From assembly GCA_037130375.1 (NCBI GenBank), contig JBAXTC010000002.1, forward strand, positions 1 to 53,906: 53,906 nt of DNA, read 5' to 3'. The notes below the pieces were generated by a model. The model searched no databases, was not told where the DNA came from, and saw only the letters and a list, made by a program, of their open reading frames with translations. The position numbers and the translations under genes were made by a program. Position 1 is the first letter of the stretch. Each line of letters begins with the position of its first letter. This document shows, one piece after another, positions 19,236-40,383 of this stretch. The DNA comes from Verrucomicrobiota bacterium. Lineage in GTDB: Bacteria; Verrucomicrobiota; Verrucomicrobiia; Limisphaerales; UBA8199.

Positions 19236-20069
19236 TCACGGACTTAGGACTACCGTGCAATGTTGTTGCAACCACGCGACATCCACGCTGTTCGGGGAGG
19301 CGAGGTACGTCAGAACCTGCGTGGTTCCGGATGGAACGGCGGTGCGCGAATCGCGCCATTTATGGATTTCAGAATGTCCATCCATAAAACAAACGCCACA
19401 GGCATTATTGTGCCGGCTTGCGGGGATATTGGCCCACATAGCCCTTGGACCGGTGTCTATCATGTCCACCCCGAACGCGCCATCGTCTATGCTATCCTCG
19501 CGCTCGTCAATAAATGTGAATATGTCCGAAGGTCTTGCGACATCAGACATCTTGCGGAAATTCTGGAACTTGACATCCGGAGCATAAATCCAACTGTCAG
19601 GGCAATTCAACTTTTGATTGGCGGCATAGCTTCGCACACGTTCAATTGTGGCGCCTCCCATTAGTGCAGTGCTACGGTCGGCGGGGCATTTGTAAACCGC
19701 GATGCTGTTCAGATAAGGATACAACTTCCCGGCGGGCCACTTGAGATTGGTGGTGTTGGTATTGTCCCTGACGTTAGCCGTGCCGAGTACCATCCACCCC
19801 TGAACCCAGCCGCCGGGTTGACTCAGCCAGGCACAGGGTATAATCTGATTATTGTTATCGTTGGCGTACATGATCCCCGCAAGGCTGAGTTGTCGGAGGT
19901 TGTTCGCACACGCAGTCCTTTGCGCCGCTATTTTCGCCTTGGTCAGCGCTGGTAAAAGCAACGCCGCAAGAATTGCGATGATGGCGATGACCACCAACAG
20001 TTCAATTAGAGTGAAAGCGCGCATCACAATGCCGTTGCCTTCGCTCGTTGATAGACTTTGATATTTCAT
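19236..20069 (-). CDS. Prepilin-type N-terminal domain / H-X9-DG pseudopilin-like protein (P2)
   Basis: [18 protein letters not shown]|[28 protein letters not shown]. The C-terminus has [13 protein letters not shown]. Confidence 0.9.
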
Positions 20070-20160
20070 ATTGCGTCAATCTGATCGCTTCTCTCTCTGT
20101 TCCTTCGTCCGCAGGCACATATCTTTCGAAGACGCCGTTTTTGGCAGAGGTCACTGACAA

Positions 20161-20997
20161 CTATCGCACCGGAGTCGCTACGGCAGCTTGCATGCGACGC
20201 AAGTCTTTGCTATTCGGGGTGGGTGTAAAATAAACGTGGAGATGTCCGGTGCTCGGTTCGAGCCAATGCCAGTACTCGGCGTGGCCATCAGCAAATGCCA
20301 GGGTGCAGCCATAGTCGTGAATCACAGTAGGCCAGTTGCCCCACGACTGACGTTCTGCGGGCGTTCCCCACATGCCGTCGTCAATGCTGGCACCGGCTTC
20401 GTGAATAAACGTCAAGGCTTGAATGGGCGATGGATGTAAAATGTCCGTGTCCTTATGGTTGACGCGATAATGGTTCGGTGAAAAATCCCATTGCGCTTGA
20501 TAATCGGGTCTGCCGTTCATCGACGCGTTCAAAGAGTAGCTGCGGACCCGCAAGTCCCTACCGCCCGTAGCCCCGCGTATCGGTTCGTTAGGAATCGTGC
20601 TGCGGTCCAAGGGACAGCGGTAGATACCCAAGGATTTGTTATAGGGAAAAAGAAAGCCGGTTTTAATGAAATTGCTATTGGTTGCCTGGTCGTTCATCAC
20701 CATGCTTCCCAGAATCCACGAGTTTTGGAGGTCGCTTCCAAGGACTTCCTGAGCGATGTCGTTGCCAACCAACCGGCCATTGTTATCGCCGTAATACATT
20801 ATCCAGCACACGTCCATTTGCTTTAGGTTGTTGAGACAACTTATCCGCAGGGCTTTCTGCTTGGCGTTGGAAAGTGCCGGCAGCAGGAGGGCGGCGAGAA
20901 TTGCGATGATGGCGATTACGACCAGCAGCTCGATTAGCGTAAAGGCGCGACTCGCAACGCCTTTGGTTTCAGATCTCGACAGCTTCCGTATTGTCAT
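20161..20997 (-). CDS. Prepilin-type N-terminal domain / H-X9-DG pseudopilin-like protein (P3)
   Basis: [18 protein letters not shown]|[28 protein letters not shown]. The C-terminus has [13 protein letters not shown]. Confidence 0.9.
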
Positions 20998-21052
20998 GCG
21001 AACTCCCGAGGGTTGGTTAACACCTTCAAAGTTATTACTCTACAAAATGTGT

Positions 21053-21089
21053 CCTGCATCGCGAAGCTCAGAGAACTCCGCGATGCAGG
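21053..21089 (-). terminator. Intrinsic-terminator-like hairpin after the 1079-aa LamG gene
   Basis: The perfect 11-bp arms are CCTGCATCGCG (21053-21063) and CGCGATGCAGG (21079-21089), with a 15-nt loop. On the sense (minus) strand the hairpin is followed by ACACAUUUUGUAG. It lies between the stop at 21118 and the P3 start at 20997. Confidence 0.55.
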
Positions 21090-21117
21090 TGTGGGCATTT
21101 CAAATAATCAACCCTGA

Positions 21118-24100
21118 TTACTCACGAATGCGATAATACTTTTGGACACCCGTCGGGGTTATGGTCCACGGACTGCTGGCCCCGACTACGTCAGCGTAGG
21201 CTCCGGCCGCATTTGTGGCAGACTGCAAAATGCCGCTGCCAGACCAAGTGAGGGTCAGGCTGCCACCTGAGTACGTCGCCGTGATCGGCAGGAGGATGGC
21301 AGCGCTTTCGGTCGGGCCAATTCCCGCCGGGGTATATGCGGGATTGCCTGACAGCACCAGCTTGTCAAAGACGAACCCGTCTTCCCGCATCCATACGTTG
21401 ATGATGTGAGCGCCGCTTGTTGGGACCGTGAACGTAGCACCCGTCGGCGTCGGGGTCGAGCCCCAAGCGTAACCAGCCGCTTGTGGCCATTGGCCATTCT
21501 CGCGGAAAGCTACAACGCCGTCCAACCCCAAATTAATGGAGTCACTTGCGCCCCCAGCATCGCTATCCCCTGAGCCGCGCACCCAGACAGTGAATGTGCC
21601 GCTTGTGGCGAAATAAACGCGGTAGTCCAGCTCCGGGATGCCGACCGGCATGTCGCCGGGATTGTAACTATAGGATGTGCCGGAGTTCGGGAGGGCAACC
21701 ATGCAGCCGGTGCCAGAGAAGTTCGTGTTGACCGACGTGGGCAACAGGAAAGGTGAGCTGGTGGTGAAGGTCCAACTTTGGCCGGCTCCCGGCGTGTTCA
21801 GGGTATAATTCTCAGCCTCAAGAACCAAAAGGTTGTTGGCGCTTGAATCCTGGAGCCGGGCCACGTCGCTAGGCACGGCAATCGTGACAGGGGTGGTCGC
21901 GGCATTACCCGCCCAATCGGTGACGCCGGTGGCGGTTAACGTATAGGTTGGCCCCCAGTTAATCGGGGAGGTGGTGAGGCGCACAGTTGTCGCATTAACC
22001 ACCGTGGCAGCACTGACTGTCACACCATGATTAATGGCATACTTCGATGCATTTGCCGCCGTACCTGGGGTGACGGCACTCGAAAACACGACCGTCACCT
22101 CTGTGTTCTGATTAATGCTGACCGTGGCAGAAACCAGCCCGGGTCCGCTTGCCGCCGGCGTGAAATACTTGCTGATCAAGTAATTTTGAACCGCAGTATC
22201 TTGAGCAGGTGACACACTGGTATAAACCAGGATTTCCGAGATGTCGCCAACAAGGTTTTGGGTGCCGCCTGGGAAGAGCGCCCCAATCATAAAGCCGCGA
22301 GCGGTAGTATAATCAATAGCCTTCGTGTTCGGAAGAATCCCGACTTGAACGGTATTAAGAGCCAGAGTCTGGTCTCCAGGATTCGCAAACGCGGCCACGA
22401 TCAAAGTTGGCACCCGGTTGCCCAGGACGGGACTCGGGTCGATGGGGTAATACGAATTTCCGACGCCGCCTGCCCCTCCCCCCCACGTGGCCCATTTTAA
22501 TGCTCCTGCGCGGGAGTCGCTGCCTCCCAAGACATAGCCTTCCCAGTTACCGATAAAGTCATCTGATTGTTTCGCGGCGTCCAAGTCACCGACGAGATAA
22601 ATGGTAATATTTTGCAGATTAAAGGCAGCCGTGCCAGCAACTAGCAGACCGCATGTGCCATCGAAACTAAGCACCGAGTGCATGGCGTTCGGACAAGCCA
22701 CTTGCCCGACTTTCACGTTTCCAAAAGACGGAAAGGCGGAGTGGGTCATGCTCGGGTCGGATTGGTCATCCCATTGATAAACGCCAATGCTGTCGGACAT
22801 AACGTTCGTATCGGCTGCCAGCCACAAAAGCCGATTCGCTGAAGGAGGCGTACTCACTATGCCAGGGATCGGTATGGTGGCTTTTGCGTCTGTCGCAACA
22901 TTCCCATACCTGTCTTGAACGCCGTTCACGGTGAGAGTGCTCGGCGCGGTGGTTATCGGAGTGGTGCTCAAAACAACCGAGGTAACGAAATTCGTGCCCT
23001 CTGCCGCTGTTGCGCCATTGACGGTGACGCCATTATTGATGCTGTAGTTGGCAATAGTGGTGGCGGTGGACGCGCTCACCAGCCCAGAAAAGACTACGGT
23101 CAACTTCGTCGAATCAGCATAATCCCGCAAGGCTGACAGCACCGTGGGTTTATTGGTTGGGACAATCACCGTTAAAACGGCACCGAGGCTGTTCGTGAAG
23201 CCAACACTGTTGCTCACTTTAACGCTATAAACGCCCGAATCACCCCCTGTCGCGCTCGCTATGGTATAAGTCGGAGAATCAGGCGCGCCAACAATCGGTG
23301 TGCCCGGTGTGCCTTTCAGCCACTGATACGAAAACGGAGGTGTTCCGTCGGCAAGCACCGAGAAACTGACGGGCGAAAAGACCGGCACGCTCGTGCCCTG
23401 CGGCTGGGTCGTGATCACCGGAGGTCCGGCGTTGAGGAAATATTTGGTCAGCAGGTAAGCTTCGGTGGCCGCCAGTTCACTACCGGAGAGCGTACGGTTG
23501 TACATTACCACTTCCGCAAGGTCGCCGGCGAATCGCTCAGACGCGCCACCGAGGCCCAACACGTTATCGGGAGGAGTGGCTCCCTGCGTATGGCAACAAA
23601 TTGTGAACGGTTCACCTACCAAACCACCGCCGCGACCCACTCCTGTCATGGAATAGTTTGCCCAGCCGCCCGTGGAACGGAAATATTCCCGGAAGGACAA
23701 GGTGCCCCCGGCAGTGACATTCATTTCAATAATTGACCATTCGGGAGCTGTCGGTATGGGATTTCCGAGGTTGAACACCACCGGCGAGACGTACGTAACA
23801 AACATATAGCTCGGGACAGCTTCCCATTCGCCCAATTCATAGGGACATGCAGCCCCGCGTTTGGCAACAATACACGGAGCTCCCCCCACACCGTGAACGG
23901 CGTTGTTCTGGAAAACGACGATAATGGTGATGTCGTGTGTCGGATCAATCAGTGTGGGGTCGTTTGCATCCAGATTGTTCGTCTGCCAAAGGCGATCGGC
24001 CAAATGGCCATTTGGGGGAGGGATCGAGGGATCGTTGGCCTGGCGGAAATGAACGGCATTGAACGTGAGACCGTTATTGTTCGCGACAATCAACTGTGGC

Positions 24101-24357
24101 GTATGGTTCTCCGGGTCATTGGCGGTATCGACCGTGGGCAGCGGGGGAACGGTCAAAACTGTTCCATTCGTGGAGCTGTCCGCCCAAACGGGGACGGTCG
24201 AGCCGGACAAGGTGTCGCCCTTAAGCCATAGCTTCAGCGTAGGATCATTTGTATTGATCTGCGCATAAGCCGCGCAGCTAATCAGAATAAACAGGGCTTG
24301 GAGGCCAAGCCATTTCATGGCCCGGCCATTGAAATACAGAAGTGGTGATGTTATCAT
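21118..24357 (-). CDS. Giant secreted LamG/Ig-like multidomain protein (2 LamG-type modules, I-set Ig, 2 SbsA/Big-like Ig, CBM-like domain, shared FYR C-terminal module)
   Basis: 1079 aa. The signal peptide fits best from the internal Met (MKWLGLQALFILISCAAYAQ, start 24318). The LamG modules end ...FAGDLAEVVMYNRTLS...YLLTKYF and ...LVGDISEILVYTSVS...YLISKYF. The Ig domain is PPFSYQWLKG...GVYSVKVSNSVG. The CBM-like part is LVLEAENYTL...FVFDKLVLS. The C-terminus is ...SLTLTWSGSGILQSA...KYYRIRE. Confidence 0.85.
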   Translation of the reverse strand: MITSPLLYFNGRAMKWLGLQALFILISCAAYAQINTNDPTLKLWLKGDTLSGSTVPVWADSSTNGTVLTVPPLPTVDTANDPENHTPQLIVANNNGLTFNAVHFRQANDPSIPPPNGHLADRLWQTNNLDANDPTLIDPTHDITIIVVFQNNAVHGVGGAPCIVAKRGAACPYELGEWEAVPSYMFVTYVSPVVFNLGNPIPTAPEWSIIEMNVTAGGTLSFREYFRSTGGWANYSMTGVGRGGGLVGEPFTICCHTQGATPPDNVLGLGGASERFAGDLAEVVMYNRTLSGSELAATEAYLLTKYFLNAGPPVITTQPQGTSVPVFSPVSFSVLADGTPPFSYQWLKGTPGTPIVGAPDSPTYTIASATGGDSGVYSVKVSNSVGFTNSLGAVLTVIVPTNKPTVLSALRDYADSTKLTVVFSGLVSASTATTIANYSINNGVTVNGATAAEGTNFVTSVVLSTTPITTAPSTLTVNGVQDRYGNVATDAKATIPIPGIVSTPPSANRLLWLAADTNVMSDSIGVYQWDDQSDPSMTHSAFPSFGNVKVGQVACPNAMHSVLSFDGTCGLLVAGTAAFNLQNITIYLVGDLDAAKQSDDFIGNWEGYVLGGSDSRAGALKWATWGGGAGGVGNSYYPIDPSPVLGNRVPTLIVAAFANPGDQTLALNTVQVGILPNTKAIDYTTARGFMIGALFPGGTQNLVGDISEILVYTSVSPAQDTAVQNYLISKYFTPAASGPGLVSATVSINQNTEVTVVFSSAVTPGTAANASKYAINHGVTVSAATVVNATTVRLTTSPINWGPTYTLTATGVTDWAGNAATTPVTIAVPSDVARLQDSSANNLLVLEAENYTLNTPGAGQSWTFTTSSPFLLPTSVNTNFSGTGCMVALPNSGTSYSYNPGDMPVGIPELDYRVYFATSGTFTVWVRGSGDSDAGGASDSINLGLDGVVAFRENGQWPQAAGYAWGSTPTPTGATFTVPTSGAHIINVWMREDGFVFDKLVLSGNPAYTPAGIGPTESAAILLPITATYSGGSLTLTWSGSGILQSATNAAGAYADVVGASSPWTITPTGVQKYYRIRE

Positions 24358-24673
24358 GATATTTGTTTTTGTGTTATTCGTTTTGGATTTAGTTTGCTAC
24401 TCACAGGTTCAGCCGGCGGCGAAGCTGGCTTTCGGTACAAATACAATGCTTGCCTTTCGGTAATCATAAGTATTGCTTTCAATCATAAATATAGCACTGT
24501 TCACGAATCGTCACCTCCTTTTTTCGACGTAAAGAATCCTCTTTTTAGATCATCTGGAAAGTTTGCGCATGGAGGGGCGGGGCGGGGAAATGAAGAATGA
24601 GGAACGGTGGTTGGCAAGGGCAGGGGACAGCAGGGGAGATTTAGGGGGAAAAGCAACACAACGCGAGCCGATG
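24358..24673 (-). promoter_or_regulatory. Conserved non-coding 5' leader/promoter block, copy A (paralogous to 33479..33776)
   Basis: It aligns end to end with copy B. I counted 57/58 identical nt at 24616-24673 vs 33719-33776, and 44/45 at 24513-24557 vs 33615-33659. Similarity ends abruptly after ...acgcgagccgatg. No ORF is conserved between the copies. Confidence 0.6.
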
Positions 24674-24823
24674 AATGGTCGGGTGGAGCGGAGGCGCGAC
24701 ATGATTAGGCCAATGGCTTCCAATGGTTCTGCCCTTTCGAGGATCGTGGCAAACCGTCATAGCCATGGTTTCAAGGCAGGAATTGGTCATGCGAGGTGTA
24801 ACCGAAAGTAAGCCGTGCAAAAC

Positions 24824-26935
24824 TCATCTCAACGACCGGTAGGCAATCACCGCGGCCGAAGGTTTTTCTTTGAGCGTCACCGTTAAGCCTTGCTGCATCA
24901 ACTCCCGGCCTGTGCGGACTTCCTTGCCGCCGTCAAAGTTCTCCACCTCGAATCGCGCCTTTGATTCCAAGCCGCGCAGCTTGAAGTTCATGCTCTGCTC
25001 GCCGCTGTCCGGACGGCGGAATACCTGCACCACGCCCTCGCCCAAATCCGGCCGATCGAACTGCCACGCCAGCCACACGTCATCCTTAAGGCTGTATGGC
25101 GTGAGCGGGTAGAAATCTCCGAGCATGAGGTGCGCGACCCGGCTGCATTCGTCGTAGGCCTGCTGTGCGCCGGAAACGGTGGGACCGTCCCACGGGGTCA
25201 TGGAGGGAGCGTAATAACTGCGGGTCATAAAGGGCTCGGCGAAAAAGCCGGCGTTGCCGTAGTAGGGCAGCCAAGCCGCCAGAGCAAGCGTCTGGCTTTG
25301 GGTCGCCAGCGCGTTGGTTCGCGTCTTCGAGACGAAGTCCGTCCGGCAAAGCGGCACCGCTCGGCGCATGGACTCAAGGTCGTTGCGCCGTCCGCCTGAC
25401 GCGCAGGAATCGATGAATAGGCCCGGATGACGCAGGCGCAACTGGTCCCAAAACGCAAGATGCCCCTGGACGTAAAGGTTCTCGGTCATGCCTTGGCGGT
25501 CAGAGACGTCGTGCTTGCGGCAGGCCGGCAGTGGTCCGCCCCCATTCATGTCCTCGCGATACCAGTCGATTCCTTCGGACCGAATCATCCCACTGACATG
25601 GTTGATGAGCCACTGCAGCGCTTCGGGGTTGCCCAGGTTCAGCAACGCACCGTGCGAGGTGCCGGGCAGCAGCCAGTCCGGGCGGTCCCGCGCGAGCCAG
25701 GAGTTGGTGTCCCCGACGCGTTCAGGTTCAAACCACAGAATGAATTGTTTGCCATTGGCATGGAGCTTTTCGGTAAACTCACTGAATCCGTTCGGCAGAC
25801 GGACCGGATCAGGGATCCAAGTCCCGGTGTTCAGCCAGCGGTCGCTCCCGGCGTAGGTTCCGTTGTCGCAAGGGTACCAACCGGCATCGACCCACAAGGC
25901 GGTGAGTTTGGATCCGGGCGCGGCGATGATTTCCGTCACGGCCCGGCAGTTGACCTCTGACTGCTCCGCCAGCGGGGAGGGGCAAGTGGAAATCATCGGC
26001 GGCGGCAATTTCCCCCTTGCACGCGGCATGTTGTGCGCCACGAACCAACGCCGCCAGAGATTCTGTGCCTGCACCAAGTCGTCTCCTGAATAAAACACCA
26101 TCGCGATCAACGGCGTGCGGATCTCTTCCCCGGGCTTGAGCGAAAGATGCGTGGTCTGCTGGCCGGCGACGATTCTCAAACTGTTCGCGTCCCCGCGCTT
26201 AAATGAACTGGCCCATTGACCCGGCCAGCCAATCGCCAGGATCAAACCCCCTCCCGGCATCTGGAGATTGTAATAAGGCCAACCCCGCGGCCCGTCGCAG
26301 GATTTTCCCGATGCATCCGGGGGGCCAAACTTCTGCTCCAAACCTGGAGTCAAAGACACCTGGTAGGGTTCGTAGCTGTCCATGGCGCAGAAATCGCCTT
26401 TGTTGCAGTGCAACAGAAACTCGCCATTGCCGGACTTTTCAAAACGCGTGTCCAAACCCTGAATCTCTTTCAGGATCAGGGTGTCCTTAATTCCGGTGTT
26501 CCGAAAGTAAACGATCCACTCCACAGCCGGATAGTCCGTGTACTCTACCGATTCGCAGCGCACCACCATGCCTGTCGCGGGATCGCTCCAAGTCATGCTG
26601 CGCTCGGTACGGCCAGCCCCCGGGTTTCTGCTGCGAACTCTCAATTTCCACTGGCTCAGCAGTTCCCCGGAATCCCGACCGCCGTAGATGAACGAAAAGG
26701 GAAGGACAGGTTTTTCTCCAAGAATATGTTGTTGCGACCATCGATCCCGCTCCTGGACGGCCGCCGGCGTTACGAGTTCGGAATCGGCAGTAAGCGTCTC
26801 GCGAAACAAAAAAAACGCCACGACCGAGGACCACACCACGCCCGTGAGTCGCAGTTTTCGGCGCATACAAGGGCCGCCCATGCTGGCAACCCCCATAAAA
26901 TCACTCAGACGAGTTTTGCATTTGGCAGCTTTCAT
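24824..26935 (-). CDS. GH36-like (clan GH-D, alpha-galactosidase-type) glycoside hydrolase, paralogue 1
   Basis: 703-aa ORF. The likely start is Met24 at 26866 (MRRKLRLTGVVWSSVVAFFLF is signal-like). The nucleophile-type motif is GIDWYREDMNGG and the acid/base-type motif is IDSCASGGRRNDLESMRR. Compare GH36 KWDMN and CSGGGGRxD (from memory). Confidence 0.75.
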   Translation of the reverse strand: MKAAKCKTRLSDFMGVASMGGPCMRRKLRLTGVVWSSVVAFFLFRETLTADSELVTPAAVQERDRWSQQHILGEKPVLPFSFIYGGRDSGELLSQWKLRVRSRNPGAGRTERSMTWSDPATGMVVRCESVEYTDYPAVEWIVYFRNTGIKDTLILKEIQGLDTRFEKSGNGEFLLHCNKGDFCAMDSYEPYQVSLTPGLEQKFGPPDASGKSCDGPRGWPYYNLQMPGGGLILAIGWPGQWASSFKRGDANSLRIVAGQQTTHLSLKPGEEIRTPLIAMVFYSGDDLVQAQNLWRRWFVAHNMPRARGKLPPPMISTCPSPLAEQSEVNCRAVTEIIAAPGSKLTALWVDAGWYPCDNGTYAGSDRWLNTGTWIPDPVRLPNGFSEFTEKLHANGKQFILWFEPERVGDTNSWLARDRPDWLLPGTSHGALLNLGNPEALQWLINHVSGMIRSEGIDWYREDMNGGGPLPACRKHDVSDRQGMTENLYVQGHLAFWDQLRLRHPGLFIDSCASGGRRNDLESMRRAVPLCRTDFVSKTRTNALATQSQTLALAAWLPYYGNAGFFAEPFMTRSYYAPSMTPWDGPTVSGAQQAYDECSRVAHLMLGDFYPLTPYSLKDDVWLAWQFDRPDLGEGVVQVFRRPDSGEQSMNFKLRGLESKARFEVENFDGGKEVRTGRELMQQGLTVTLKEKPSAAVIAYRSLR

Positions 26936-26987
26936 ATCTTCATGGGTTGAAGGAATGGCGCTTGAGATTACTCGCAGGCTTAAAATC

Positions 26988-29585: not shown

Positions 29586-29764
29586 ATTTCATACTGTTTC
29601 TAGCCGGCCCCCCACGAACACCAATAGCGGCGGGGCTCCGAGGCGGTTTTTCGACATCCGTTTATTTCAACACACTGTCGGAAGCCACTTTTTGGTTTGT
29701 GCATGAAACACCTGTAAACATTGAGTTTAATCGGTTTTGGCACCAAGTGTGAAATATCCGGGCT

Positions 29765-29863: not shown

Positions 29864-29872
29864 AGTGTCTGG

Positions 29873-30673
29873 CTACCAGTAGAAACCGAAGGCACCCCCA
29901 AAGAACTGCTTGGCCTTGTCCAACCCTGTCACGGCGTTGGTGTATTGTCTCCAACTCATTCCCTCAGAATGTCCGTCCATGAAGGCGAGATTGCCAACGT
30001 CGCCGTGGTACTTTGTTCCGAGATGATCCGTACCTTCTGGATTCTCGGCCAGGAAGAGGGTCATCCCATTGTCGTACTGCGAGTTGTCCGGTTCGAAGAC
30101 CAGTAAAGTTCGCGATGGCGAACTGCGGAGCGAGCTCAACTTTAGGTCGAGAAGCGTCTGGTTTCCAGGCGCCGGAGGGTAAATAGACATCGCGGCCTGG
30201 CCATTGATCGTGTAACTCCAAGAAGGATACGTTAGGGGAGGTGCCGTGATATTGAAGCCCCAGAATCTGAGATTAGGTTGTCCGTCGGGAAGCAATGGCT
30301 TGCGCATAGCGTAAGTGGGGCAACGAAATACGCCAACGGACTTCCCCACATAGCTCCACAGCAGACCGGTGGCAAGGTCCCCTTGTTTTTCCGCGCCCTG
30401 GAGACGCCGGTCGGCTGGCCAGGCATAATCGGGATCGTGAAACTCCCAACCCCAGCCGGGGATATAGTCCTTGTAATCATTGGCATACATCATGAACCCA
30501 AGGCCAATTTGCTTCAAGTTGCTACGGCAGCCTATGGATTGTGCTTTCGCCTTGGCCTTGCTCAAGGCGGGCAAAAGCAGCGCCGCCAGAATCGCGATGA
30601 TCGCGATTACCACCAGCAGTTCAATGAGAGTGAAGGCTCTTTTTCCCTGTTTCCAGAATGCTGTTTCGATCAT
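29873..30673 (-). CDS. Prepilin-type N-terminal domain / H-X9-DG pseudopilin-like protein (P4)
   Basis: The ORF is open to 30784, but that extension would cover a conserved hairpin. The likely start is ATG at 30673, giving a 13-aa leader [13 protein letters not shown]|[28 protein letters not shown]. The C-terminus has [13 protein letters not shown]. It is a close paralogue of P5 and P6. Confidence 0.88.
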
Positions 30674-30761
30674 GAGGGAACAATCTTCGAAGTGGGACAT
30701 TTCCACGACTCTTGTCTTACATTGAATAGGCGATTCGACCTGCCAACCGATTAGTTGCGGT

Positions 30762-30797
30762 CTGCATCGCAGGGGTGTTGCCACCCCCGCGTGCAGG
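30762..30797 (-). other. Intergenic stem-loop between the 887-aa LamG gene and P4 (related to the hairpins at 21053 and 39480)
   Basis: The sense strand reads CCTGCA-c-GCGGGGGUG-gcaa-CACCCCUGC-ga-UGCAG. That gives 9 bp (including one G.U) plus 5 bp of outer pairing. It sits 18 nt after the stop at 30815. No U-tract follows. Confidence 0.5.
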
Positions 30798-30814
30798 CGT
30801 CAAGGCTGCTTCAA

Positions 30815-33478: not shown

Positions 33479-33776
33479 GTTGTTATGTTATTTGTTTTTA
33501 TTTAGTTTGCTACTCACGGGTTTAGCCGGCGACGAAGCTGGCTTTCAGTACAAGTACAATTACAATGCTTACCTTTCGGTAATCATAATTACATAGACCT
33601 GTTCGCGAATCGTTACCTCCTTTTTTCGACGTAAAGAATCCTCTTTTTGGATCATCTGGCGAGTTTGCGCCTGGGAGGGGCAGGGCGGAGGAATGAAGAA
33701 TGAGGAACGGTGTCTGGGAAGGGCAGGGGACAGCAGGGGAGATTTAGGGGGGAAAGCAACACAACGCGAGCCGATG
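33479..33776 (-). promoter_or_regulatory. Conserved non-coding 5' leader/promoter block, copy B (paralogous to 24358..24673)
   Basis: The alignment is the same as described for copy A. It contains the same G-tract motif (33721-33752) and a small conserved hairpin AGCCGGC-n6-GCTGGCT. Confidence 0.6.
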
Positions 33777-33844
33777 CAGTTTGCCGGTTTCCAGCCCACT
33801 CGTTAGATTTCCGGCTGGTGGGAAAATCGAGCTGAGGGATCACG

Positions 33845-34057
33845 TCATGATGCGCACTTCAACACGAGGTGTTGGCTTTTGACCCGGAGCGATTGCGCGG
33901 CGAACTCCAGGCAGGCCAGCACATCCTCAATGGCGTCCCCACCAGCGAGGTATTGCAGCAGGGTCTCCACCGGATACCGCAGGTTACGGATGGCCGGCTT
34001 GCCATGGCAAATGTCCGGATTGATCGTGATGCGCGACAGCAACGAGTTCATGCGCAA
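33845..34057 (-). CDS. DUF433-family small protein (antitoxin-like), unusually short; possibly a relic
   Basis: [55 protein letters not shown] carries the DUF433 core (I-x-I-D/N-P-x-I-C-H-G-K-P-x-I-R). It appears to lack about 10 residues before the final helix, compared with the family as I remember it. Confidence 0.5.
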
Positions 34058-34074
34058 TCAACGTAGCGTCGAGC

Positions 34075-34367
34075 GTCAGCACTGCAAAGGAGATTGTGGT
34101 CAGAGCTTCATCGACCTTGCGCCGACGTTCATCGAAGTGGCCGGATTGAAATGGTCTGAAACCTGGATGGCCGAATCGTCGGGGTGCAGCCTCGCCGACA
34201 TTTTCCGATCGGACAAATCCGACCTGGTGAACCCGGCGCGCGATCACGTGCTCATCGGCAAGGAACGCACCGACGTCGGACTCCCGCACGACTGGGGCTA
34301 TCCGACCCGCGGCATCGAGAACCGCAACCGAGAGGTTCGATCTGAACTCGTGGAGTTGGCGCGGTAG
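34075..34367 (+). pseudogene. C-terminal fragment of a sulfatase (arylsulfatase/N-sulfoglucosamine sulfohydrolase-like) gene
   Basis: ...[71 protein letters not shown] matches the C-terminal third of PVC-type sulfatases (S-x-IDLAPT..AG; RDHVxIGKERHDVGRP..GYPxRxI). There is no N-terminal catalytic domain or start upstream. Confidence 0.65.
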
Positions 34368-34581
34368 AAAGTCGTCATAAATGCACGTTTTTTGACCGAA
34401 AAACGGAGGCAGCCTCGTTCGCACATCATTAATTTTCGACAAAGGCAAAATGAAAATTGCTAGATCATGTTTCGCTAGTTTCCGCCGCCTCCCGTCGGCT
34501 GGCTGCCGACAATGGGCTGGCACGCGCCAGGAATCGATCATGCCTGGCTTGATCTGGAACGTACTTATACCATAAATCAGC

Positions 34582-35379
34582 ATGAAATGGGGCAATGACT
34601 CGAAAACCGGACAAAACGGCAGGGGAATCCTTGCGTTTACCTTGATTGAACTGTTGGTGGTCATAGCCATCATTGCGATTCTTGCAGCCTTGCTCCTGCC
34701 CGCGTTGAGCCGGGCTAAAGGGAAGGCGCAAGCGATGGGCTGCCTCAGCAATCTGCGGCAGATCGGCATTGGTTTCACGATGTACGCGAATGATTTCAAG
34801 GATACGATTCCCTGCTGGGGATGGCAGTTTCACGATCCTGCCTATGCCGGTCCGCCCGATCGGCAGATTCAGGGGACGGAGAAACAGGCGGATTTCAGCA
34901 CGGGCCTCCTGTGGAACTATGTGGCACGTTCTGCCGCGGTCTTTCGCTGCCCGACTTACACTATTCGTCAGCCAACCTCGCCGAGGTTTTGGGGGTTCAA
35001 TTCCACCACCCCTCCGTTGCCATATCCCCTGTGGGACTATTCTATCAATGGCCAGGCAGGCTACTCGTGCATCTCACCGGCACTCGTCAACAGCACCCTC
35101 GATCTCAAACTGAGCAGCCTCCATACGCCGCCAGCCAAAACACTCCTGGTAATGGAGCCGGATAATATGGCGTACGATAACGGCGTCACCCTTTTTGACG
35201 GCACGCTGGATCCCCTGAACCAGGATCATCTTGGAACTCGCTTCCATGCCGATGTTGGTTCCCTTACGTTTATGGATGGACACGCAAACAGCATGAAATG
35301 GAGAACCTACACCAACTCCACCTCGGGGCTGGAAAACGCCAAGCAGTTCTTTGGCGGCAGCTTCAATTTCTTCTGGTAA
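34582..35379 (+). CDS. Prepilin-type N-terminal domain / H-X9-DG pseudopilin-like protein (P5)
   Basis: MKWGNDSKTGQNGRGILA|[28 protein letters not shown]. The C-terminus has H-ADVGSLTFM-DG-H. It shares WGWQFHDP, FRCPTY and the C-terminal KQFFGGSFNFFW with P4 and P6. Confidence 0.9.
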   Translation: MKWGNDSKTGQNGRGILAFTLIELLVVIAIIAILAALLLPALSRAKGKAQAMGCLSNLRQIGIGFTMYANDFKDTIPCWGWQFHDPAYAGPPDRQIQGTEKQADFSTGLLWNYVARSAAVFRCPTYTIRQPTSPRFWGFNSTTPPLPYPLWDYSINGQAGYSCISPALVNSTLDLKLSSLHTPPAKTLLVMEPDNMAYDNGVTLFDGTLDPLNQDHLGTRFHADVGSLTFMDGHANSMKWRTYTNSTSGLENAKQFFGGSFNFFW

Positions 35380-35672
35380 TCCACTCGGGCAGGTGTTTTC
35401 CACGGTTTGACTTCTGAAAATTTGTCTGGTGGGGGCGCAGGGAAGCGGATCAGGGACCATTCAAGTGCGAAGCGGGCGTTGGCAGCCACTGAGCGTCATC
35501 ATGAAAACGAATACCTGTGGGCAATTGGTTTTGGGCACCAACAAGCGCACTCCGTGTTTGGAGTTGTACCAGAAACTGTCCGGGGAGACGTTGCGGCCCT
35601 TGAAATGACGACTATTCTCCAAGCTGAGTTTTGATTGTGCTCCGAGGTTTCCGGTCAAAGCGTGTTTCTTTG

Positions 35673-37865
35673 CTATTGCTGGATTTTGACCCGCAACAAT
35701 TCAGTCGGGTGATTCATCTGCCCGGTCCAGCTTGTGACCCCGCTCAAGCCGGGGAGGTTGGTAGCCACGGATGCCCAGGAAACCTCCTGCAGCAGGTTCG
35801 TGCAGCCCTCGATCGCATAGACTCTGCCGTTGGCACTTTGCCAGGTGAGCGCAAACCGGTTGCCCGGCAAGAGCGCCATTTGCGTCACCTGGAATGGCGG
35901 CGCGGGAATGGCCAATACCGGACCATAGCTGGTGAACGCCGCGCTGGAAGCCGCGCTCACCCACTCGGCCCACACCCAGTTGGCGGACCGGGCAACATTC
36001 GAAATCCGCACTTCATTCAGGCTCCCGTCAAAGTCATACGTGCGGTTGGTCGTGTGGTAGGTCGGGAGGGCGGCTAAACTCAGTTCATCCAGCGCGGTGT
36101 TGATCTGGCTTTGGCCCGTGGCGGCATTGTTCAGGCTGCCATCATAGTAAAGCTGCACCCCGCTCAAGTCACTCTGTCCGCTGGGCAAGACTGCCGCCAA
36201 CTGGTGCCACTGCCCATCCGAAGTCCAGGGAAAGGTCCGGCTTGCGCCGCAGTTCTCCACCCCCAACGCGTTGGCCGCACCATTGCCCCCGATCCATAGC
36301 CCAAAACGCTGGCCGGTCGTGTTGTTGCCATACCCAATAATCTCTTTGCCGGGAGACGCCGTCGCCGCCGCATTCTTCTTGAACCACGCCGAAACCGTGC
36401 GCGGGTTCGACCCGCCGGGCAGCGTCGCGCCGCTGCAACTGACGTAGCCGCCACTAAAACCGCAAGCGTTGGCAATCTCCCCGGCCACACCCCGCGTGCA
36501 AGCCCCGTAGGTGGTGTAAACCACTCCCACCGTGAGATTTGGGCTGGAATCGCGCGCAAATCCCCGCGCTTCGCTCAAATGCCATACGCTCACGTACCCG
36601 TTGGCCCACGTCGCGCCGTTGGTCAGGCAGGGAGCCGGCACGCTCGCCCGGTTGGAGTCGCCCCAGCAAGCCCCGATGGTCCTGATGGTCGCCAGTTGCG
36701 GCACCTGCACCCAAATATACGAATTGCCATACGGATTCCAGCTCTCGATTTCGTAGTTCAATTCCTGCGTGAACGTGGCATCGAGGAACAACAGGTCCCA
36801 GCCGTTGGTCGAGGCAAACTGGTTGTAACCAAACCCATTGCCCAATAGATTGGGACCAAACACCACCAGGGTCGGAAAGTTGGTTAAGGTCTCAACCCGG
36901 TTGTAGCCGGGGAAGGTGAGCTGCATTTTCTGCAGGGGAGCGTAGGCGCTGATGGCGATTCGGGCCGTGGCGGTGTTGCTGCTAATATCCTGCACCGTGA
37001 TCTGGGCAGTGTAGCGGCCACTGGCGGTGTAGGTGTGGGTTGGATTCTGGTTGGTGGAAGAGCCGCCGTCGCCAAAGGTCCAGGCATACCGGAGCGAACC
37101 ACCGTTGGTGGAAGTGCCCGTAGCCGAGAATTGCACGGCCAGCGGCGCAAGCCCCCTTGGAGGACTGGCGCTGGCCCAGACGGCTACTGGCGGAGTGGTG
37201 TAGTAAAGAATGGCTGATTGCTGAGGAGCCAACTGCACGAGCAAACCGGTGGTCATTAACTGGCTTCCGGTGTAGAGGCCCAGGGCACCACGATCAAAAT
37301 CCTGCACGTCATAAAGCTGGGCCGAGTTCAAGCCCTGCAACGGGAACTGCATCGAAGCAACGGGGCTATTGGTCCGCCGAAAAATCTGCACCACGCCCTG
37401 GCCGGTATCCGGCCGGTCGAATTGCCAAGCCATCCAAACCGTGTTCGTCAGGCTGTATGGCGTCAACGGATAATAATCGCCCAAAAGCATGCACGGCGCG
37501 ACCTTCTGGCACTCGCCATAGGCCTGCTGCTGTGCGGCGGTGTTGCCTGGCGAGAGCCCAAATGCCATCGCGAACGACGGCAGGTAGAAGCTGCGGAAAG
37601 AATACACGTCAAGAAAGTACGAACCGGAGCCATTAAAGGGCAGCCACGAGGAGAGGCCATAGGTTTGACACTGGTTCCCATCGACCACATTCGCCATCGA
37701 GGGCGATTGAAAATCACTGCGCGTGAGCGGCACGGCGCGGCGCATCGTCTCGAGGTCGTTGCGCCGGCCGCCCGAGGCGCAGGAGTCGATGCGCAAGCCG
37801 GGATTCATGGCCCGCAGCGCATCCCAATAGGCGAGGTGGTTTTGCACATAGTAGAAATAAAACAT
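35673..37865 (-). CDS. 5'-truncated GH36-like C-terminal region fused to PKD - DUF2341-like - LamG - shared C-terminal module (probably non-functional as a hydrolase)
   Basis: 730-aa ORF. Homology to the intact paralogues begins only at YVQNHLAYWDALRAMNPGLRIDSCASGGRRNDLETMRR, which is about residue 480 of the 703-aa paralogue. It has no signal peptide and no nucleophile motif. Next come PKD (LAVQFSATGTS...YAWTFGDGGSS...HTYTASGRYTAQITVQD), DUF2341-like (NYEIESWNPYGNSYIWVQVP) and LamG (FDGSLNEVRISNVARSANW). Confidence 0.7.
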   Translation of the reverse strand: MFYFYYVQNHLAYWDALRAMNPGLRIDSCASGGRRNDLETMRRAVPLTRSDFQSPSMANVVDGNQCQTYGLSSWLPFNGSGSYFLDVYSFRSFYLPSFAMAFGLSPGNTAAQQQAYGECQKVAPCMLLGDYYPLTPYSLTNTVWMAWQFDRPDTGQGVVQIFRRTNSPVASMQFPLQGLNSAQLYDVQDFDRGALGLYTGSQLMTTGLLVQLAPQQSAILYYTTPPVAVWASASPPRGLAPLAVQFSATGTSTNGGSLRYAWTFGDGGSSTNQNPTHTYTASGRYTAQITVQDISSNTATARIAISAYAPLQKMQLTFPGYNRVETLTNFPTLVVFGPNLLGNGFGYNQFASTNGWDLLFLDATFTQELNYEIESWNPYGNSYIWVQVPQLATIRTIGACWGDSNRASVPAPCLTNGATWANGYVSVWHLSEARGFARDSSPNLTVGVVYTTYGACTRGVAGEIANACGFSGGYVSCSGATLPGGSNPRTVSAWFKKNAAATASPGKEIIGYGNNTTGQRFGLWIGGNGAANALGVENCGASRTFPWTSDGQWHQLAAVLPSGQSDLSGVQLYYDGSLNNAATGQSQINTALDELSLAALPTYHTTNRTYDFDGSLNEVRISNVARSANWVWAEWVSAASSAAFTSYGPVLAIPAPPFQVTQMALLPGNRFALTWQSANGRVYAIEGCTNLLQEVSWASVATNLPGLSGVTSWTGQMNHPTELLRVKIQQ

Positions 37866-37975
37866 TCCGGAATAGGTTATGTTGCTCTAATCGTGTCGGG
37901 CGGCGTCGGCTTGCTCCTGCGGGCAAGGACGGTGTGCGACACAACCCACCAAACATAAAACTGAAATAAGAATAG

Positions 37976-39462
37976 ATGAAAACCAATCCGTGCCTCTCAA
38001 CATTCGTGGTAAAACTGTGTCTGGCGACCGCCGTAGCGGCCGTGGCCATCGGCACAGCTTCCGCCCAAATCAACGGCTCCGATCCTTCCCTTAGGATCTG
38101 GCTGAAATCCGACACGCTTTCCGGCACCGTTGTGTCCAATTGGCTGGACAGCAGCAGTTGGGGGACCCTGATGCAGCCCCCACCGCTGCCCGCCGCCGAT
38201 ACCTGGAATGACGCCTCGAACCATATACCTCAGGTTGTCGAAGTTAACAATAACGGTCTGACATCTTTGTGCCGGTCGTAACCGCTATACCCCCGAAGGG
38301 TAATCTGCTGCTCTGGCTGGCTGCGGATACAAACGCGCTGACTTTTGGCAGCGGCGACTTGGCGAATTCGGTTTATGAATGGGACGACATGTCCGGCACG
38401 GCCCACAACGCGATGCCACCCAACAATGGCGCCGAAGCGTTGCCCATTCTGGGAGCGGCACCGTTCCCCAATGCGGTTCACCCGGTGCTCCACTTCTACG
38501 GCAACAACGCCCTCCAGCCGGTGAATTCCCCGGACTTTTATGTGCAGAATTTCACCGTCTATCTGGTAGGCAGTGTGGATAACACCAAGGCGTCCCGGGA
38601 TTGGATTGGCAGTTGGGAAGGCTGGTGCCTCGGAACGAGCGACGGCAGCGCCGGCGTCATTAAATGGGTAACCCACACCACCGCGGGGGATTTCAGCATG
38701 GAACCGGCGGCAAGCTTCATGCCCTTTATGGTGCCTGCTTTTATCGCTGGGACGTTCTCCAATCCTGGCAATAAGACCTTGGCCGTTAACGGTGCGGTGC
38801 TCGGTGTCCAATCGAACACAGCGCCGATTAATTACAGCACGGATCGAGGGGTGGCCATAGGGTCGCTCTTTTTTGACTCTTTGACCCAGCCCTTGGTTGG
38901 AGACATCGCCGAGATTCTGATCTACACCAACGTCTCGGCGGCCCAGGATGCGGGGGTGCAAGCGTATATCGCCAGCAAGTATTTCACGCCGTCAACGGTC
39001 GCTCCCAAGCTGTCGTCTGCGTCCAGCAGCGCTGCTCAGAATACCACCGTCAGGGTCGTATTCTCGGGGAATGTCAGCGCAACCACGGCCGGCAACCCGG
39101 CGAACTATGCAATTGACCACGGCGTGAGCGTGAGTGCCGCCACGGTGGTTAATGGAACCACGGTGAATCTCACCACATCCGTCCTGAATTCGGGTCCGGT
39201 CTATAATCTGACGGTGAACGGCGTCGCGGATTGGGCAGGCAACGCCCTGGCGGCCAACTCCAAGATCGCGGTCAGCGGTATTCCGGTGCTGCTCGACATC
39301 CAAAAACAGGGGACAGCAATCTCGATTAAGTGGGATGCACCGGGCTGGAAGCTCCAGTCAAGCGGCCCCCTCGGGGGATCGTGGTCCAATGTGACGGGGG
39401 CATCGAGTCCTTATCCGGTCACGCCGACGGGGACGCCTACGTTCTATCGACTCAGTGAGTAG
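37976..39462 (+). pseudogene. LamG/Ig-like giant-protein paralogue with a large internal deletion and frameshift (ORFs 37976..38281 and 38269..39462)
   Basis: ORF1 is the signal peptide plus the start of LamG-1 (AQINGSDPSLRIWLKSDTLSG...VEVNNNGLT), matching residues ~30-96 of the paralogues. At 38262/38263 the sequence jumps to IFVPVVTAIPPKGNLLLWLAAD, which corresponds to ATIFVPVVAEAPPSANRLLWLAGD at about residue 505 of the 887-aa paralogue. The jump is in a different frame (2-nt offset). The C-terminal half is otherwise intact and ends ...ISIKWDAPGWKLQSS...TFYRLSE. Confidence 0.75.
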
Positions 39463-39479
39463 AATCTGAGCTGTGCAAA

Positions 39480-39524
39480 CCTGCATCGTGGCGGGAACTC
39501 GCCGCGATGCAGGAATAGTTTTTT
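39480..39524 (+). terminator. Rho-independent terminator after the deleted LamG paralogue
   Basis: The 14-bp stem is CCTGCATCGTGGCG / CGCCGCGATGCAGG (one G.U), with a 6-nt loop ggaact. It is followed by AATAGTTTTTTGACC, with the T6 tract at 39519-39524. Its arm sequence is related to the hairpin at 21053-21089. Confidence 0.75.
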
Positions 39525-39600
39525 GACCATCTTGCGGCATGCAAGCACTTAAGAAAAGGAAAGTAGCACCGCAAGGTGGTATGTGGAAGGGTACATTAGT

Positions 39601-40383
39601 ATGAGAGGCCAAAAGAAAACGGGCAGGGTCGCACTTGCCTTTACGCTAATTGAATTGCTGGTGGTCATCGCTATCATCGCCATCCTCGCGGCCTTGCTCC
39701 TCCCGGCCTTGAGCAAGGCCAAAGGCAAAGCGCAATCGGTGGCGTGCCGCAGCAATATGCGCCAAATCGGCATCGGCTTCATGATGTACGCGCAGGACTT
39801 CAAAGATTATATCCCGGGCTGGGGATGGCAGTTCCACGAACCGAGCTATGCTGATCCGCCCGATCGGCGGATTCAAGGCGCGGAACATCAGGCCGACCTT
39901 ACGACGGGTGTCTTATGGAATTACGTAGGGAAGTCCGCTGGCGTATTTCGCTGCCCCGCTTACGCATTGCGCAAGCCCAGCACGCAGCGTTTTTGGGGGT
40001 TCAATTCCACGACCCCTCCTCTAGCATACCCACAGTGGAGCTATGTGGAAAACGGGCAGGCGGGCCTGTCGTGCCGCGGACTGAATCCACCCAACAACAG
40101 TATTGACGTGAAAATGTCTGGCCTTCATACCCCACCAGCCACAACCTGCCTGGTCATCGAGTGCGAGGATGGCCAGATGGACAATGGCATCGTCCTCTTC
40201 GATGGCAATGCAAGTCCCATGGACCAGGACCATCTTGGAACCAAATATCACAGTGAGAATGGCAGTATCGCATTCATGGATGGGCACGCCGTCGGCATGA
40301 AATGGAGACAATATACCAATGCCGTGATGGGGTTGGAGAATTGCAAGCAGTTCTTTGGCGGGAGTTACGGCTTTTATTGGTAA
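39601..40383 (+). CDS. Prepilin-type N-terminal domain / H-X9-DG pseudopilin-like protein (P6)
   Basis: The ORF track starts at GTG 39583. ATG at 39601 gives a 13-aa leader MRGQKKTGRVALA|[28 protein letters not shown], with GGAAGG 10 nt upstream. The C-terminus has H-SENGSIAFM-DG-H. Confidence 0.88.
   Translation: MRGQKKTGRVALAFTLIELLVVIAIIAILAALLLPALSKAKGKAQSVACRSNMRQIGIGFMMYAQDFKDYIPGWGWQFHEPSYADPPDRRIQGAEHQADLTTGVLWNYVGKSAGVFRCPAYALRKPSTQRFWGFNSTTPPLAYPQWSYVENGQAGLSCRGLNPPNNSIDVKMSGLHTPPATTCLVIECEDGQMDNGIVLFDGNASPMDQDHLGTKYHSENGSIAFMDGHAVGMKWRQYTNAVMGLENCKQFFGGSYGFYW

Follow-up and report, generated by a model that had tools for sequence, protein, structure and literature searches.

A recurrent unit of a FYR-ended giant protein gene and an H-X9-DG pseudopilin-like gene in a putative glycan-utilisation region of a Verrucomicrobiota bacterium

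A stretch of 53,906 nt from a Verrucomicrobiota bacterium (GTDB lineage Limisphaerales, UBA8199; assembly GCA_037130375.1, contig JBAXTC010000002.1, positions 1–53,906; hereafter the window) contains six genes for very large predicted proteins (giants, G1 to G6) that end in a shared C-terminal module, here called FYR, together with six genes for pseudopilin-like proteins of the H-X9-DG/DUF1559 family (P1 to P6, also called pilins below). Four of the giants are followed on the same strand by a very stable stem-loop and then by a pilin gene, and the same arrangement recurs on other contigs. An earlier note on this DNA had proposed that each pseudopilin is a dedicated partner that displays, exports or tethers the adjacent lectin-like giant, and that the pairs take the role of SusC/D in an analogue of a polysaccharide-utilisation locus (PUL). 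Our analysis partly supports this proposal, with corrections: we describe a conserved, enriched and oriented two-gene unit in a glycan cluster, which is both facultative and modular.

All four giant-pilin adjacencies were recovered when the window was scanned by listing of its open reading frames (ORFs) and with Pfam and NCBIfam profiles. G1 (3491–5992, minus strand) precedes P1 (2617–3417, minus) with a gap of 73 bp, and G2 (21118–24357, minus) is followed by P3 (20161–20997, minus) and then, in tandem, by P2 (19236–20069, minus), with gaps of 120 and 91 bp. G3 (30815–33478, minus) precedes P4, for which the longest ORF (29873–30784, minus) leaves a gap of 30 bp; an identical 275-aa database protein (P0001) uses the start at 30700, which is the probable one and gives a gap of 114 bp. 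The fourth pair, G4 (37976–39462) and P6 (39583–40383), is inverted relative to the others (plus strand) and has a gap of 120 bp. Shuffling the order of the 28 window genes yielded on average 0.79 co-oriented giant-to-pilin pairs, and at least the four observed in only 0.11% of cases (p = 0.001), a figure that overstates independence because the cassettes are paralogous. While the adjacency thus holds for all four cassettes, they are not four intact and independent cases, as G4 is broken and G2, G3 and G4 are old paralogues, leaving about three independent cases.

The six short proteins are of the H-X9-DG type, as had been noted: all score above the curated cut-off of the PF07963 (N_methyl) prepilin motif (23.7–33.2 bits, cut-off 21.2), and direct reading found an H-x9-DG-H motif in each, 25–45 residues from the C-terminus. 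With PF07963, P1 (266 aa) reached 26.2 bits, P3 (278 aa) 27.8, P4 33.2, P5 (34582–35379, plus strand) 24.3 and P6 (266 aa) 23.7 bits, and P2 (277 aa) also matched. TIGR02532 gave 22.9–30.3 bits against a cut-off of 16.3 (24.4 for P1), with P5 scanned against Pfam only. The DUF1559 model (PF07596, cut-off 23.3) was reached by P2 (28.8 bits) and P4 (23.3 bits) only, with P1 and P6 (21.3 bits) and P5 (18.8 bits) below it and P3 without a match, and the matches span just the first ~40–100 of 268 model positions. TIGR04294 was reported for P1 only, under its cut-off (16.3 against 19 bits). Homologues of these proteins carry the JGI name 'prepilin-type processing-associated H-X9-DG protein'. Matches to models of defined (pseudo)pilins were restricted to the N-terminal helix and fell far short of their cut-offs: 30–34.5 bits for GspG (cut-off 88.85), ~24 for GspH (80) and ~18–19 for GspI (44; P1 and P2 only), with ComGC and PilA likewise far under their equivalog cut-offs.

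The 24-residue N-terminal sequence of the alpha-1 helix (encoded, for example, within 3340–3417 and 30590–30700) is identical in P1 to P6 and contains FTLIE with Glu at position +5. We considered gene conversion of the 5′ ends as a driver of rearrangement and rejected it, since the 84-nt stretches encoding the N-termini are just 67–82% identical and differ synonymously, which argues for selection on the protein rather than recent conversion. P4, P5 and P6 form a subfamily at 65% identity (P6 is 65% identical to P4), with more than 50 database cluster representatives at 44–85% identity, and P1, P2 and P3 share ~32–39% with P4, mostly in alpha-1. In the head, two cysteines, His224, Asp234 and His236 are invariant or near-invariant in an alignment of 83 sequences. 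An AlphaFold2 model of P4 (pLDDT 89.5, pTM 0.85) predicts an alpha-1 helix of 51 residues and a head that is rich in loops and includes a small sheet. A Foldseek search of the PDB with this model returned nothing significant, the top match being a pilin alpha-1 (E 0.07), and a sequence search of the PDB matched only the N-terminal helix. A solute-binding fold of the head, as the Pfam name SBP_bac_10 would imply, is therefore not supported by the confident model and the PDB searches, which match a pilin helix only.

The giants followed by a pilin fall into two unrelated architectures. G1 (833 aa) is a beta-helix repeat protein with a Sec signal and T5SS/PEP-CTERM-associated repeats (TIGR04393, 100.5 bits over seven stretches; PATR). 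G2 (1079 aa) has the order LamG-Ig-Big_5-LamG-Big_5-GH115_C-like-FYR, and G3 (887 aa), 52% identical to it, the same order with the GH115_C-like domain lacking. G4 is a broken G3-like copy with FYR at its end; it had been given as a single gene, but tblastn placed G3 residues 30–98 in frame +2 and 493–887 in frame +1, corresponding to a 101-aa N-terminal ORF (37976–38281) and a 397-aa ORF (38269–39462) in different frames, with the equivalent of G3 residues ~99–492 deleted. G4 is thus probably a pseudogene or decayed copy. The mutual identity of G2, G3 and G4 is 45–55%, so the duplications are old. G5 (35673–37865, minus) is N-terminally truncated, with a GH36 remnant, PKD, DUF2341 and LamG domains and FYR; its ORF begins inside the GH36 catalytic region, directly opposite the start of G4. 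G6 (52105–53906, minus), a LamG/Ig giant with FYR, is cut by the end of the window, and its full-length copy in another metagenome locus (L088, JGI Ga0194052_1000661) has 1175 aa. The label 'lectin-like' for these proteins would derive from LamG- and GH115_C-type folds only.

G2 (24316–24357), G3 (33437–33478) and an orthologous giant in locus L001 (6710–6750) show a near-identical 13-residue extension, MITSPxLYFNGRA, before the methionine of the signal peptide (MKW...), which is possibly not coding but a conserved 5′ leader; sigma-70-like matches at this stretch are on the opposite strand. Giants of both types were also seen preceded by two-component regulators with a HisKA_3 kinase and a GerE-type response regulator (L001, 3933–6321; context of the G1 homologue P0283), one of which has Reg_prop/Y_Y_Y sensor repeats and in this resembles the hybrid two-component sensors found in PULs of Bacteroidota.

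The only part common to both architectures is the FYR tail, and the shared C-terminal module proposed in the earlier note is real: a hidden Markov model of FYR matches the extreme C-terminus of G1 to G6 (E 1e-16 to 1e-28). The module has ~70 residues with the pattern L.L.W ... W..V ... (F/Y)YR(L/M/I/V), and isolated modules as well as multi-repeat proteins gave no Pfam or NCBIfam match even at E<=1. Likewise, no Pfam or NCBIfam model of a C-terminal sorting signal (PEP-CTERM, autotransporter, type IX secretion system (T9SS)) covers the last 75–95 residues of the giants. A profile of the six copies matched 4,614 cluster representatives (E<=1e-3) among 1.84 billion proteins, very often at the C-terminus, and in some proteins in the interior, where as many as 25 copies are arrayed in tandem. 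AlphaFold2 predicts an all-beta sandwich, for which Fn3-like matches were weak and non-significant. Among 120 homologues of G1 the C-terminal slot is filled by the FYR module, a PEP-CTERM signal or an autotransporter barrel (PF03797), an exchange which suggests from sequence that FYR may be a sorting or anchoring device. The ends of some of these homologues (P0271–P0387) read ...VFYRMRLP, ...RFYRVRLGP or ...QRYFRIRTP.

Each gap between giant and pilin holds a stable hairpin, as had been remarked, and when the 3′ regions of 25 window genes were compared, the stem-loops after G1 to G4 ranked first to fourth in strength (-32 to -44 kcal/mol, others -5 to -27; best 40–60-nt window per region). The strongest, between G1 and P1 (3418–3490, minus strand; GGGCCGCGG...CCGCGGCCC, -44.4 kcal/mol), is not followed by a T-run, nor are those between G2 and P3 (20998–21117, minus; stem CCTGCATCGCGG...CCGCGATGCAGG, -32 kcal/mol) and G3 and P4 (30701–30814, minus; -35.5 kcal/mol), whereas the G4-P6 stem-loop (39463–39582, plus; -32 kcal/mol) is followed by T6 and has the shape of a canonical intrinsic terminator. 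The outer stem CCTGCATCGCGG is common to the G2-P3 and G4-P6 gaps, degenerate in G3-P4 and paired nowhere else in the window. A dispersed repetitive extragenic palindromic (REP)-like element was rejected as the source, the sequence being found in these three gaps only and in numbers not above chance; the stem is part of the duplicated cassette. Every giant-pilin pair examined has a hairpin after the giant. GC-rich hairpins lie 3′ of the giants in L001, L012, L063, L067 (with a T-run), L085, L167, L168 and L169, with differing sequences and pairing kept; L001 and L085 have a hairpin of another sequence at the place orthologous to G3-P4, and CCGCGG-core hairpins akin to that of G1-P1 follow the G1 homologues in L168 and L169. 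We infer that these hairpins are terminators, attenuators or 3′-stabilising structures of the message of the giant.

Recurrence beyond the window was assessed in two samples, one pilin-centred (80 loci, taken from GTDB genomes of the Verrucomicrobiota, Lentisphaerota and Planctomycetota) and one giant-centred (80 metagenome loci retrieved through Ig/Big_5 motifs of a four-sequence alignment and chosen regardless of pilins, many of them being unrelated Ig proteins), with adjacency scored on all ORFs by the position of the pilin motif. In the giant-centred sample a pilin was directly downstream of 3/13 evaluable FYR-ended genes, against 3/273 other genes (Fisher p 0.0014) and 0/62 other genes of >=600 aa (Fisher p 0.004). 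Pooling with the family of G1 and using neighbouring genes of the same loci as baseline gave 6 of the 18 FYR-ended genes against 2 of the 71 neighbours (p 7e-4), and a later look-up of P0283 added one negative (6/19). The adjacency described in the earlier note is therefore enriched both in the window and on other contigs. LamG/Ig giant-pilin pairs outside the window were found in L001–L003, L085, L012, L063, L089 and L135, with differing flanking genes, and L001–L003 keep the orthologous order giant, pilin, GH36. Homologues of G1 with an FYR end and a pilin directly downstream occur in L167 (49% identity to G1), L168 (45%) and L169 (37%), flanked by a WbsX-type glycosyltransferase gene (L167), DUF4838 and ROK genes (L168), and GH20, sulfatase and alginate lyase genes (L169). 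The two more distant homologues P0310 and P0358, which end in FYR variants, have no pilin downstream, and neither do the two PEP-CTERM-ended beta-helix giants that served as controls (P0290 and P0300; 2/2). The two architectures thus both occur in pairs with a pilin, and the enrichment is real, clade-dependent (4/5 in the G1 clade, 4/4 for G3-type orthologues) and facultative.

Seen from the pilins, the picture is broader. In the pilin-centred sample an FYR giant was directly upstream only in L012 and L063 (with L001–L003 added by look-up), and the commonest co-oriented upstream neighbour was a LacI/GntR regulator with a periplasmic-binding-protein-like sensor (Peripla_BP_3 in 11/53, GntR in 8/53), with varied large secreted proteins and hydrolases downstream. 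These varied neighbours, with the regulator the commonest, tie the family to sugar-regulated clusters and not to FYR giants. Throughout L005–L084, and especially in Lentisphaerota/Victivallales, the pilin very often lies directly after a ~340–390-aa LacI/GntR-type regulator with a Peripla_BP domain. In L004 (5395–9671), several short ORFs follow one another in the same orientation upstream of a P4-clade pilin (P0024), and one of them encodes a Malectin domain; together they look like a large gene broken by frameshifts in a long-read assembly, with no FYR module found where it ends.

Our explanation, which is a tentative one, is that giant and pilin are a recurrent two-gene unit of a glycan-utilisation region, with the pilin handled by a machine encoded elsewhere. 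The unit would comprise a Sec-exported, multi-domain, FYR-ended surface protein, a very stable stem-loop and an H-X9-DG/DUF1559 protein with a class III signal, so that the giant and a pseudopilin, taken from any of several H-X9-DG subfamilies able to occupy the slot, would be deployed together. A prepilin peptidase would cleave the pseudopilin-like proteins and a type II secretion or type IV filament machine would handle them, peptidase and machine presumably being encoded elsewhere; the proteins would act as interchangeable, locally co-regulated envelope subunits, possibly incorporated into a filament. The stem-loop, as terminator or attenuator of the giant, might set a high giant-to-pilin ratio, and the pseudopilin may assist in moving the giant, probably along with further cluster products, onto or through the outer membrane. 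Glu+5 and the 51-residue alpha-1 of the confident P4 model would fit assembly competence, and we count them in favour of this explanation.

Several observations weigh against it. None of the large ORFs of the 54-kb window contains a Pfam domain of a type II secretion system (T2SS) or type IV pilus (T4P) ATPase, platform protein, secretin or prepilin peptidase, in agreement with the earlier note. The cleavage site is predicted as A|FTLIE in all six pilins, with Ala rather than the canonical Gly at -1, and the head has no recognisable fold relative, so that no function can be read from the structure. The internal tandem repeats of FYR mean that it may serve as a general structural domain and not as a signal, and the hairpins, if full terminators, could make giant and pilin separate transcription units. 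P2 and P5 have no FYR giant directly upstream (no G-like similarity was found at 33479–34581, ahead of P5), G5 has no pilin downstream, and G6 is followed by a gene for a protein with CotH and lamin-tail (LTD) domains. More than 90% of the pilins in the pilin-centred loci have other upstream neighbours; 12–13 of the 19 FYR-ended genes sampled irrespective of pilins, about two thirds, lack a downstream pilin, among them P0283, which is 43% identical to G1, ends in FYR and is followed by a rhamnosidase-like gene. Finally, when the baseline of the giant-centred sample is limited to loci with an FYR gene, the enrichment falls to 3/13 against 2/41 (p 0.08; small samples).

A more specific relation, as first proposed, would have the head of each pilin bind the FYR module at the end of the neighbouring giant and export, display or tether this giant, the pair playing the capture role of SusC/D. 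In both of the unrelated architectures the pairing goes with the FYR tail, and it is absent from the PEP-CTERM-ended homologues; FYR sits where PEP-CTERM signals and autotransporter barrels sit, and orthologous pairs are co-inherited, G3/P4 being 68%/72% identical to their counterparts in L001 and G1/P1 45%/77% to those in L168. An apparent partner swap in L001, a GH115_C-bearing giant taken as the G2 ortholog with a P4-like pilin, was dismissed, the giant being closer to G3 (67–68%) and the pair an ordinary ortholog pair. Against this stands the lack of co-variation between FYR identity and pilin-head identity (Spearman 0.08, p 0.57; 55 comparisons among 11 pairs), which argues against a co-evolving specific interface. 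FYR modules of the G1 clade are 58–80% identical to each other with pilin heads at background in two of three loci; in L167 and L169 a tail 68% identical to that of G1 lies beside an unrelated H-X9-DG subfamily, with heads at background identity (about 28–29%). With pilin-less FYR genes and giant-less pilins as common as they are, and carbohydrate binding by the giants only putative, the 'dedicated partner' of the earlier note is not supported by these comparisons, and we consider specific head-tail recognition rather doubtful; the sequence comparisons argue for a slot that is filled by different H-X9-DG subfamilies, in a modular relation rather than a co-evolving lock-and-key. Alternatively, the giant might be monocistronic and closed by its terminator, the pilin being separately promoted and sugar-regulated and serving the downstream genes or acting alone, with the adjacency a product of cluster packing and joint duplication. 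The canonical terminators with T-runs at G4-P6 and L067 would suit such an arrangement, as would the ortholog of P2 in L001 (74% identical), which follows a GH36 gene and not a giant; the giant-pilin-GH36 order kept between the window and L001, together with the regulator-pilin layout elsewhere, keeps a hydrolase operon led by the pilin in contention. However, the gaps from giant to pilin (73–120 bp) are shorter than those from pilin to the next gene (259–297 bp), the pilin is the last co-oriented gene in L168 (where a convergent gene comes next) and for P6, and the genes downstream of the pair differ entirely between loci where it recurs, all of which favours the giant-pilin unit; that none of the 62 other large genes of the same loci has a pilin next also speaks against mere packing, and we regard separate units as unlikely.

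The pilins might also form no filaments, their class III signal serving to anchor a periplasmic or surface binding or chaperone domain whose head binds oligosaccharides or a metal. The name SBP_bac_10, older literature that calls DUF1559 a solute-binding family (PMC2754498), and the nearby genes for transporters of the SSF and MFS families point in this direction, the invariant His/Asp/His and two cysteines would suit a metal or ligand site, and archaeal sugar-binding proteins with class III signals, which form the bindosome of Sulfolobus, provide a functional analogue (PMC3047682). Since the confident model lacks a periplasmic-binding-protein fold and any significant PDB match, Glu+5 and the extremely conserved alpha-1 point to packing as in filaments, and the window has no ABC transporter, this role is quite improbable. 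Absence of any functional link, with the pairs left by segmental duplication of one ancestral pair amid a high local density of both families, appears very improbable: G2/G3/G4 and P4/P5/P6 are paralogous, the 33.5–40.4 kb region is rearranged and decaying, and the strictest external baseline gave p = 0.08, but the unrelated G1-P1 type has the same layout, pairs persist at 37–49% giant identity in unrelated neighbourhoods, and the combined test remained significant (p = 7e-4). A wider conjecture, and an unlikely one as matters stand, would extend the tentative two-gene unit: FYR would be an uncatalogued C-terminal export or anchoring domain, H-X9-DG pseudopilins would be the parts of the envelope to which FYR-tagged and perhaps other cargo is delivered, and the H-X9-DG/DUF1559 expansion in Planctomycetes, Verrucomicrobia and Lentisphaerae would be a set of exchangeable pseudopilus subunits, each turned on together with one glycan cluster, which jointly make up a pilin-based system of surface display and capture in place of SusC/D.

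The remaining gene content (contig GC 55–60%) makes the window look like a SusC/D-less glycan-utilisation region of a Pedosphaera/Limisphaerales-like Verrucomicrobiota genome, a placement in Verrucomicrobiota that follows from the names carried by homologues (Verrucomicrobiota, Pedosphaera, Limisphaerales). Three GH36-like hydrolase genes are present, encoding proteins of 703 aa (24824–26935, minus strand; Melibiase 78.7 bits, Glyco_hydro_36C) and 865 aa (26988–29585, minus; Melibiase 72.8 bits, with an NPCBM domain at 51.8 bits), and a third (44147–46369, minus), along with a GH127-like gene (6115–7998, minus), a CE1-type esterase gene (16762–17619, minus) and two enolase-superfamily dehydratase genes (17667–18938 and 42937–44166, both minus). 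The GH36-like, NPCBM, CE1 and sugar-acid dehydratase genes of the earlier note were all seen in the domain scans, but its SGNH esterase is only a 149-aa SGNH/GDSL fragment under the Pfam cut-off (40843–41292). An SSF symporter (483–2357, minus), an MFS_2 sugar transporter (9043–10560, minus) and an AraC regulator (8109–9035, plus) are also encoded, and together with GH36, GH127, the esterase and the sugar-acid dehydratases they suggest, by their family assignments, substrates containing galactosides and arabinosides. Two further large proteins are of unclear family (10769–14254, plus; 14308–16557, minus). Between G6 and the third GH36-like gene lies the gene of the 1858-aa CotH/LTD protein (46414–51990, minus), which has a CotH kinase-like domain, three lamin-tail domains, CHB_HEX_C/Fn3-associated domains and a TSP3 repeat; CotH/LTD proteins were also seen downstream of pilins in other loci. 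Pfam scans of the window gave no match to TonB_dep_Rec, Plug or SusD families, and neither tRNAs nor Rfam families were found in it, the giant-pilin gaps included.

With the decayed G4, the N-terminal truncation of G5 and the orphan P5, a member of the P4/P6 subfamily with ~1.1 kb of apparently non-coding DNA ahead of it, the region 33479–40383 appears rearranged and decaying. Between 40384 and 42936 only fragmentary ORFs, possibly pseudogenes, were seen, among them low-complexity ORFs and a 187-aa fragment resembling an FGE-sulfatase (42345–42908). Two metagenome loci appear to derive from the organism of the window or one very close to it, since one (L086, a 2-kb contig, JGI Ga0194040_1017407) is 100% identical over the G3 residues it covers and the giant of L088 has a C-terminal tail identical to that of G6.

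In a T2SS, the pseudopilus drives folded cargo from the periplasm out through the secretin, and in T4P systems the gene of a large adhesin adjoins minor-pilin genes, the adhesin being presented by the minor pilins. The pseudopilins GspG-K and T4P minor pilins share with P1 to P6 the class III signal, Glu+5 and the long hydrophobic alpha-1. In contrast to GspG, the P-type head is about twice as large and without a PDB relative, the -1 residue is Ala and no machinery is encoded nearby; in contrast to a T4P tip-adhesin module there is one pilin gene per giant (two after G2) rather than several minor pilins, and no PilY1/PilC domain was found in the giants, only LamG, Ig, Big_5, GH115_C or beta-helix repeats. 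With the PULs of Bacteroidota the window shares clustered and presumably co-regulated hydrolases, esterases, transporters, a regulator and putative surface binding proteins, but it lacks a TonB-dependent transporter and a SusD-like lipoprotein, making the analogy one of role only. FYR shares with PEP-CTERM/exosortase signals and the autotransporter barrel its extreme C-terminal place and its exchange among beta-helix homologues, and with the T9SS C-terminal domain a predicted small beta-sandwich, and differs from these sorting domains in having no Pfam, NCBIfam or significant structural match and in occurring also as internal tandem repeats. The Verru_Chthon cassette (TIGR02596–TIGR02600), of unknown function, is repeated in Verrucomicrobia and likewise combines one very large protein with prepilin-type proteins. 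P1 to P6 match its models (cassette proteins C and D) in the N-terminal helix only (21–27 bits against 70 for TIGR02596, ~16 against 256.5 for TIGR02599), and the giants gave no NCBIfam match to cassette protein A.

In the literature searched we found no paper on the giant-pseudopilin pair, the FYR tail or the Verru_Chthon cassette. DUF1559 has repeatedly been noted as the largest paralogue family of Planctomycetes and of unknown function, with 68 H-X9-DG/DUF1559 copies in Planctopirus and 74 in Rhodopirellula (PMC10632474, PMC2754498), and in agreement with the earlier note no assigned function was found in the literature searched. The window pilins share with this family of the Planctomycetota-Verrucomicrobiota-Chlamydiota (PVC) bacteria the prepilin N-terminus, the H-x9-DG near the C-terminus, the restriction to PVC-type bacteria and the massive paralogy; no difference exists at the family level, the new element being the recurrent place directly after FYR-ended giants. 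Pseudopilins in induced polysaccharide operons and pili-dependent glycan uptake have already been reported in Verrucomicrobiota. Work on Verruconatronum alginivorum published in 2026 found a pulG-like pseudopilin, which has 67 paralogues, to be up-regulated within an alginate-induced operon; another pseudopilin was among the few other induced proteins, and the T2SS was encoded elsewhere; that pseudopilin gene adjoins genes for polysaccharide lyases and an SSF transporter, and no FYR-ended giant or hairpin was reported (PMC13274419). In Akkermansia, as summarised in a published report, glycan uptake depends on MUL loci with pilus-type proteins (a type IV pilin-like protein and PilM), and the same source mentions 'selfish' laminarin uptake by Pedosphaeraceae (PMC13174399). 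As summarised there, MUL1/MUL2 share with the window a Verrucomicrobiota mode of glycan acquisition with pilus-type components in place of SusC/D, whereas MUL2 is one conserved locus that includes assembly genes (PMC13174399); its pilin-like protein Amuc_1102 is not of the H-X9-DG type as far as tested, its homology to P1 to P6 not having been compared. The concept of a PUL analogue is plausible and partly anticipated by the MUL loci and the Verruconatronum operon (PMC13174399, PMC13274419), and the giant-pilin pairing demonstrates no new mechanism.

PVC bacteria are major degraders of recalcitrant glycans that lack SusC/D. In many Planctomycetes and Verrucomicrobia no paralogue family is larger than that of the H-X9-DG/DUF1559 proteins, and two copies are essential in Planctopirus; the compact giant-hairpin-pseudopilin unit offers a tractable experimental entry to this uncharacterised family in a cultivable relative. 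If giant and pseudopilin are functionally linked, this would give the family its first role and add FYR as a new C-terminal domain with at least 4,600 cluster representatives. If they are not, the pairs would still mark the boundaries of sugar-regulated operons and be useful for annotating the glycan clusters of PVC bacteria.

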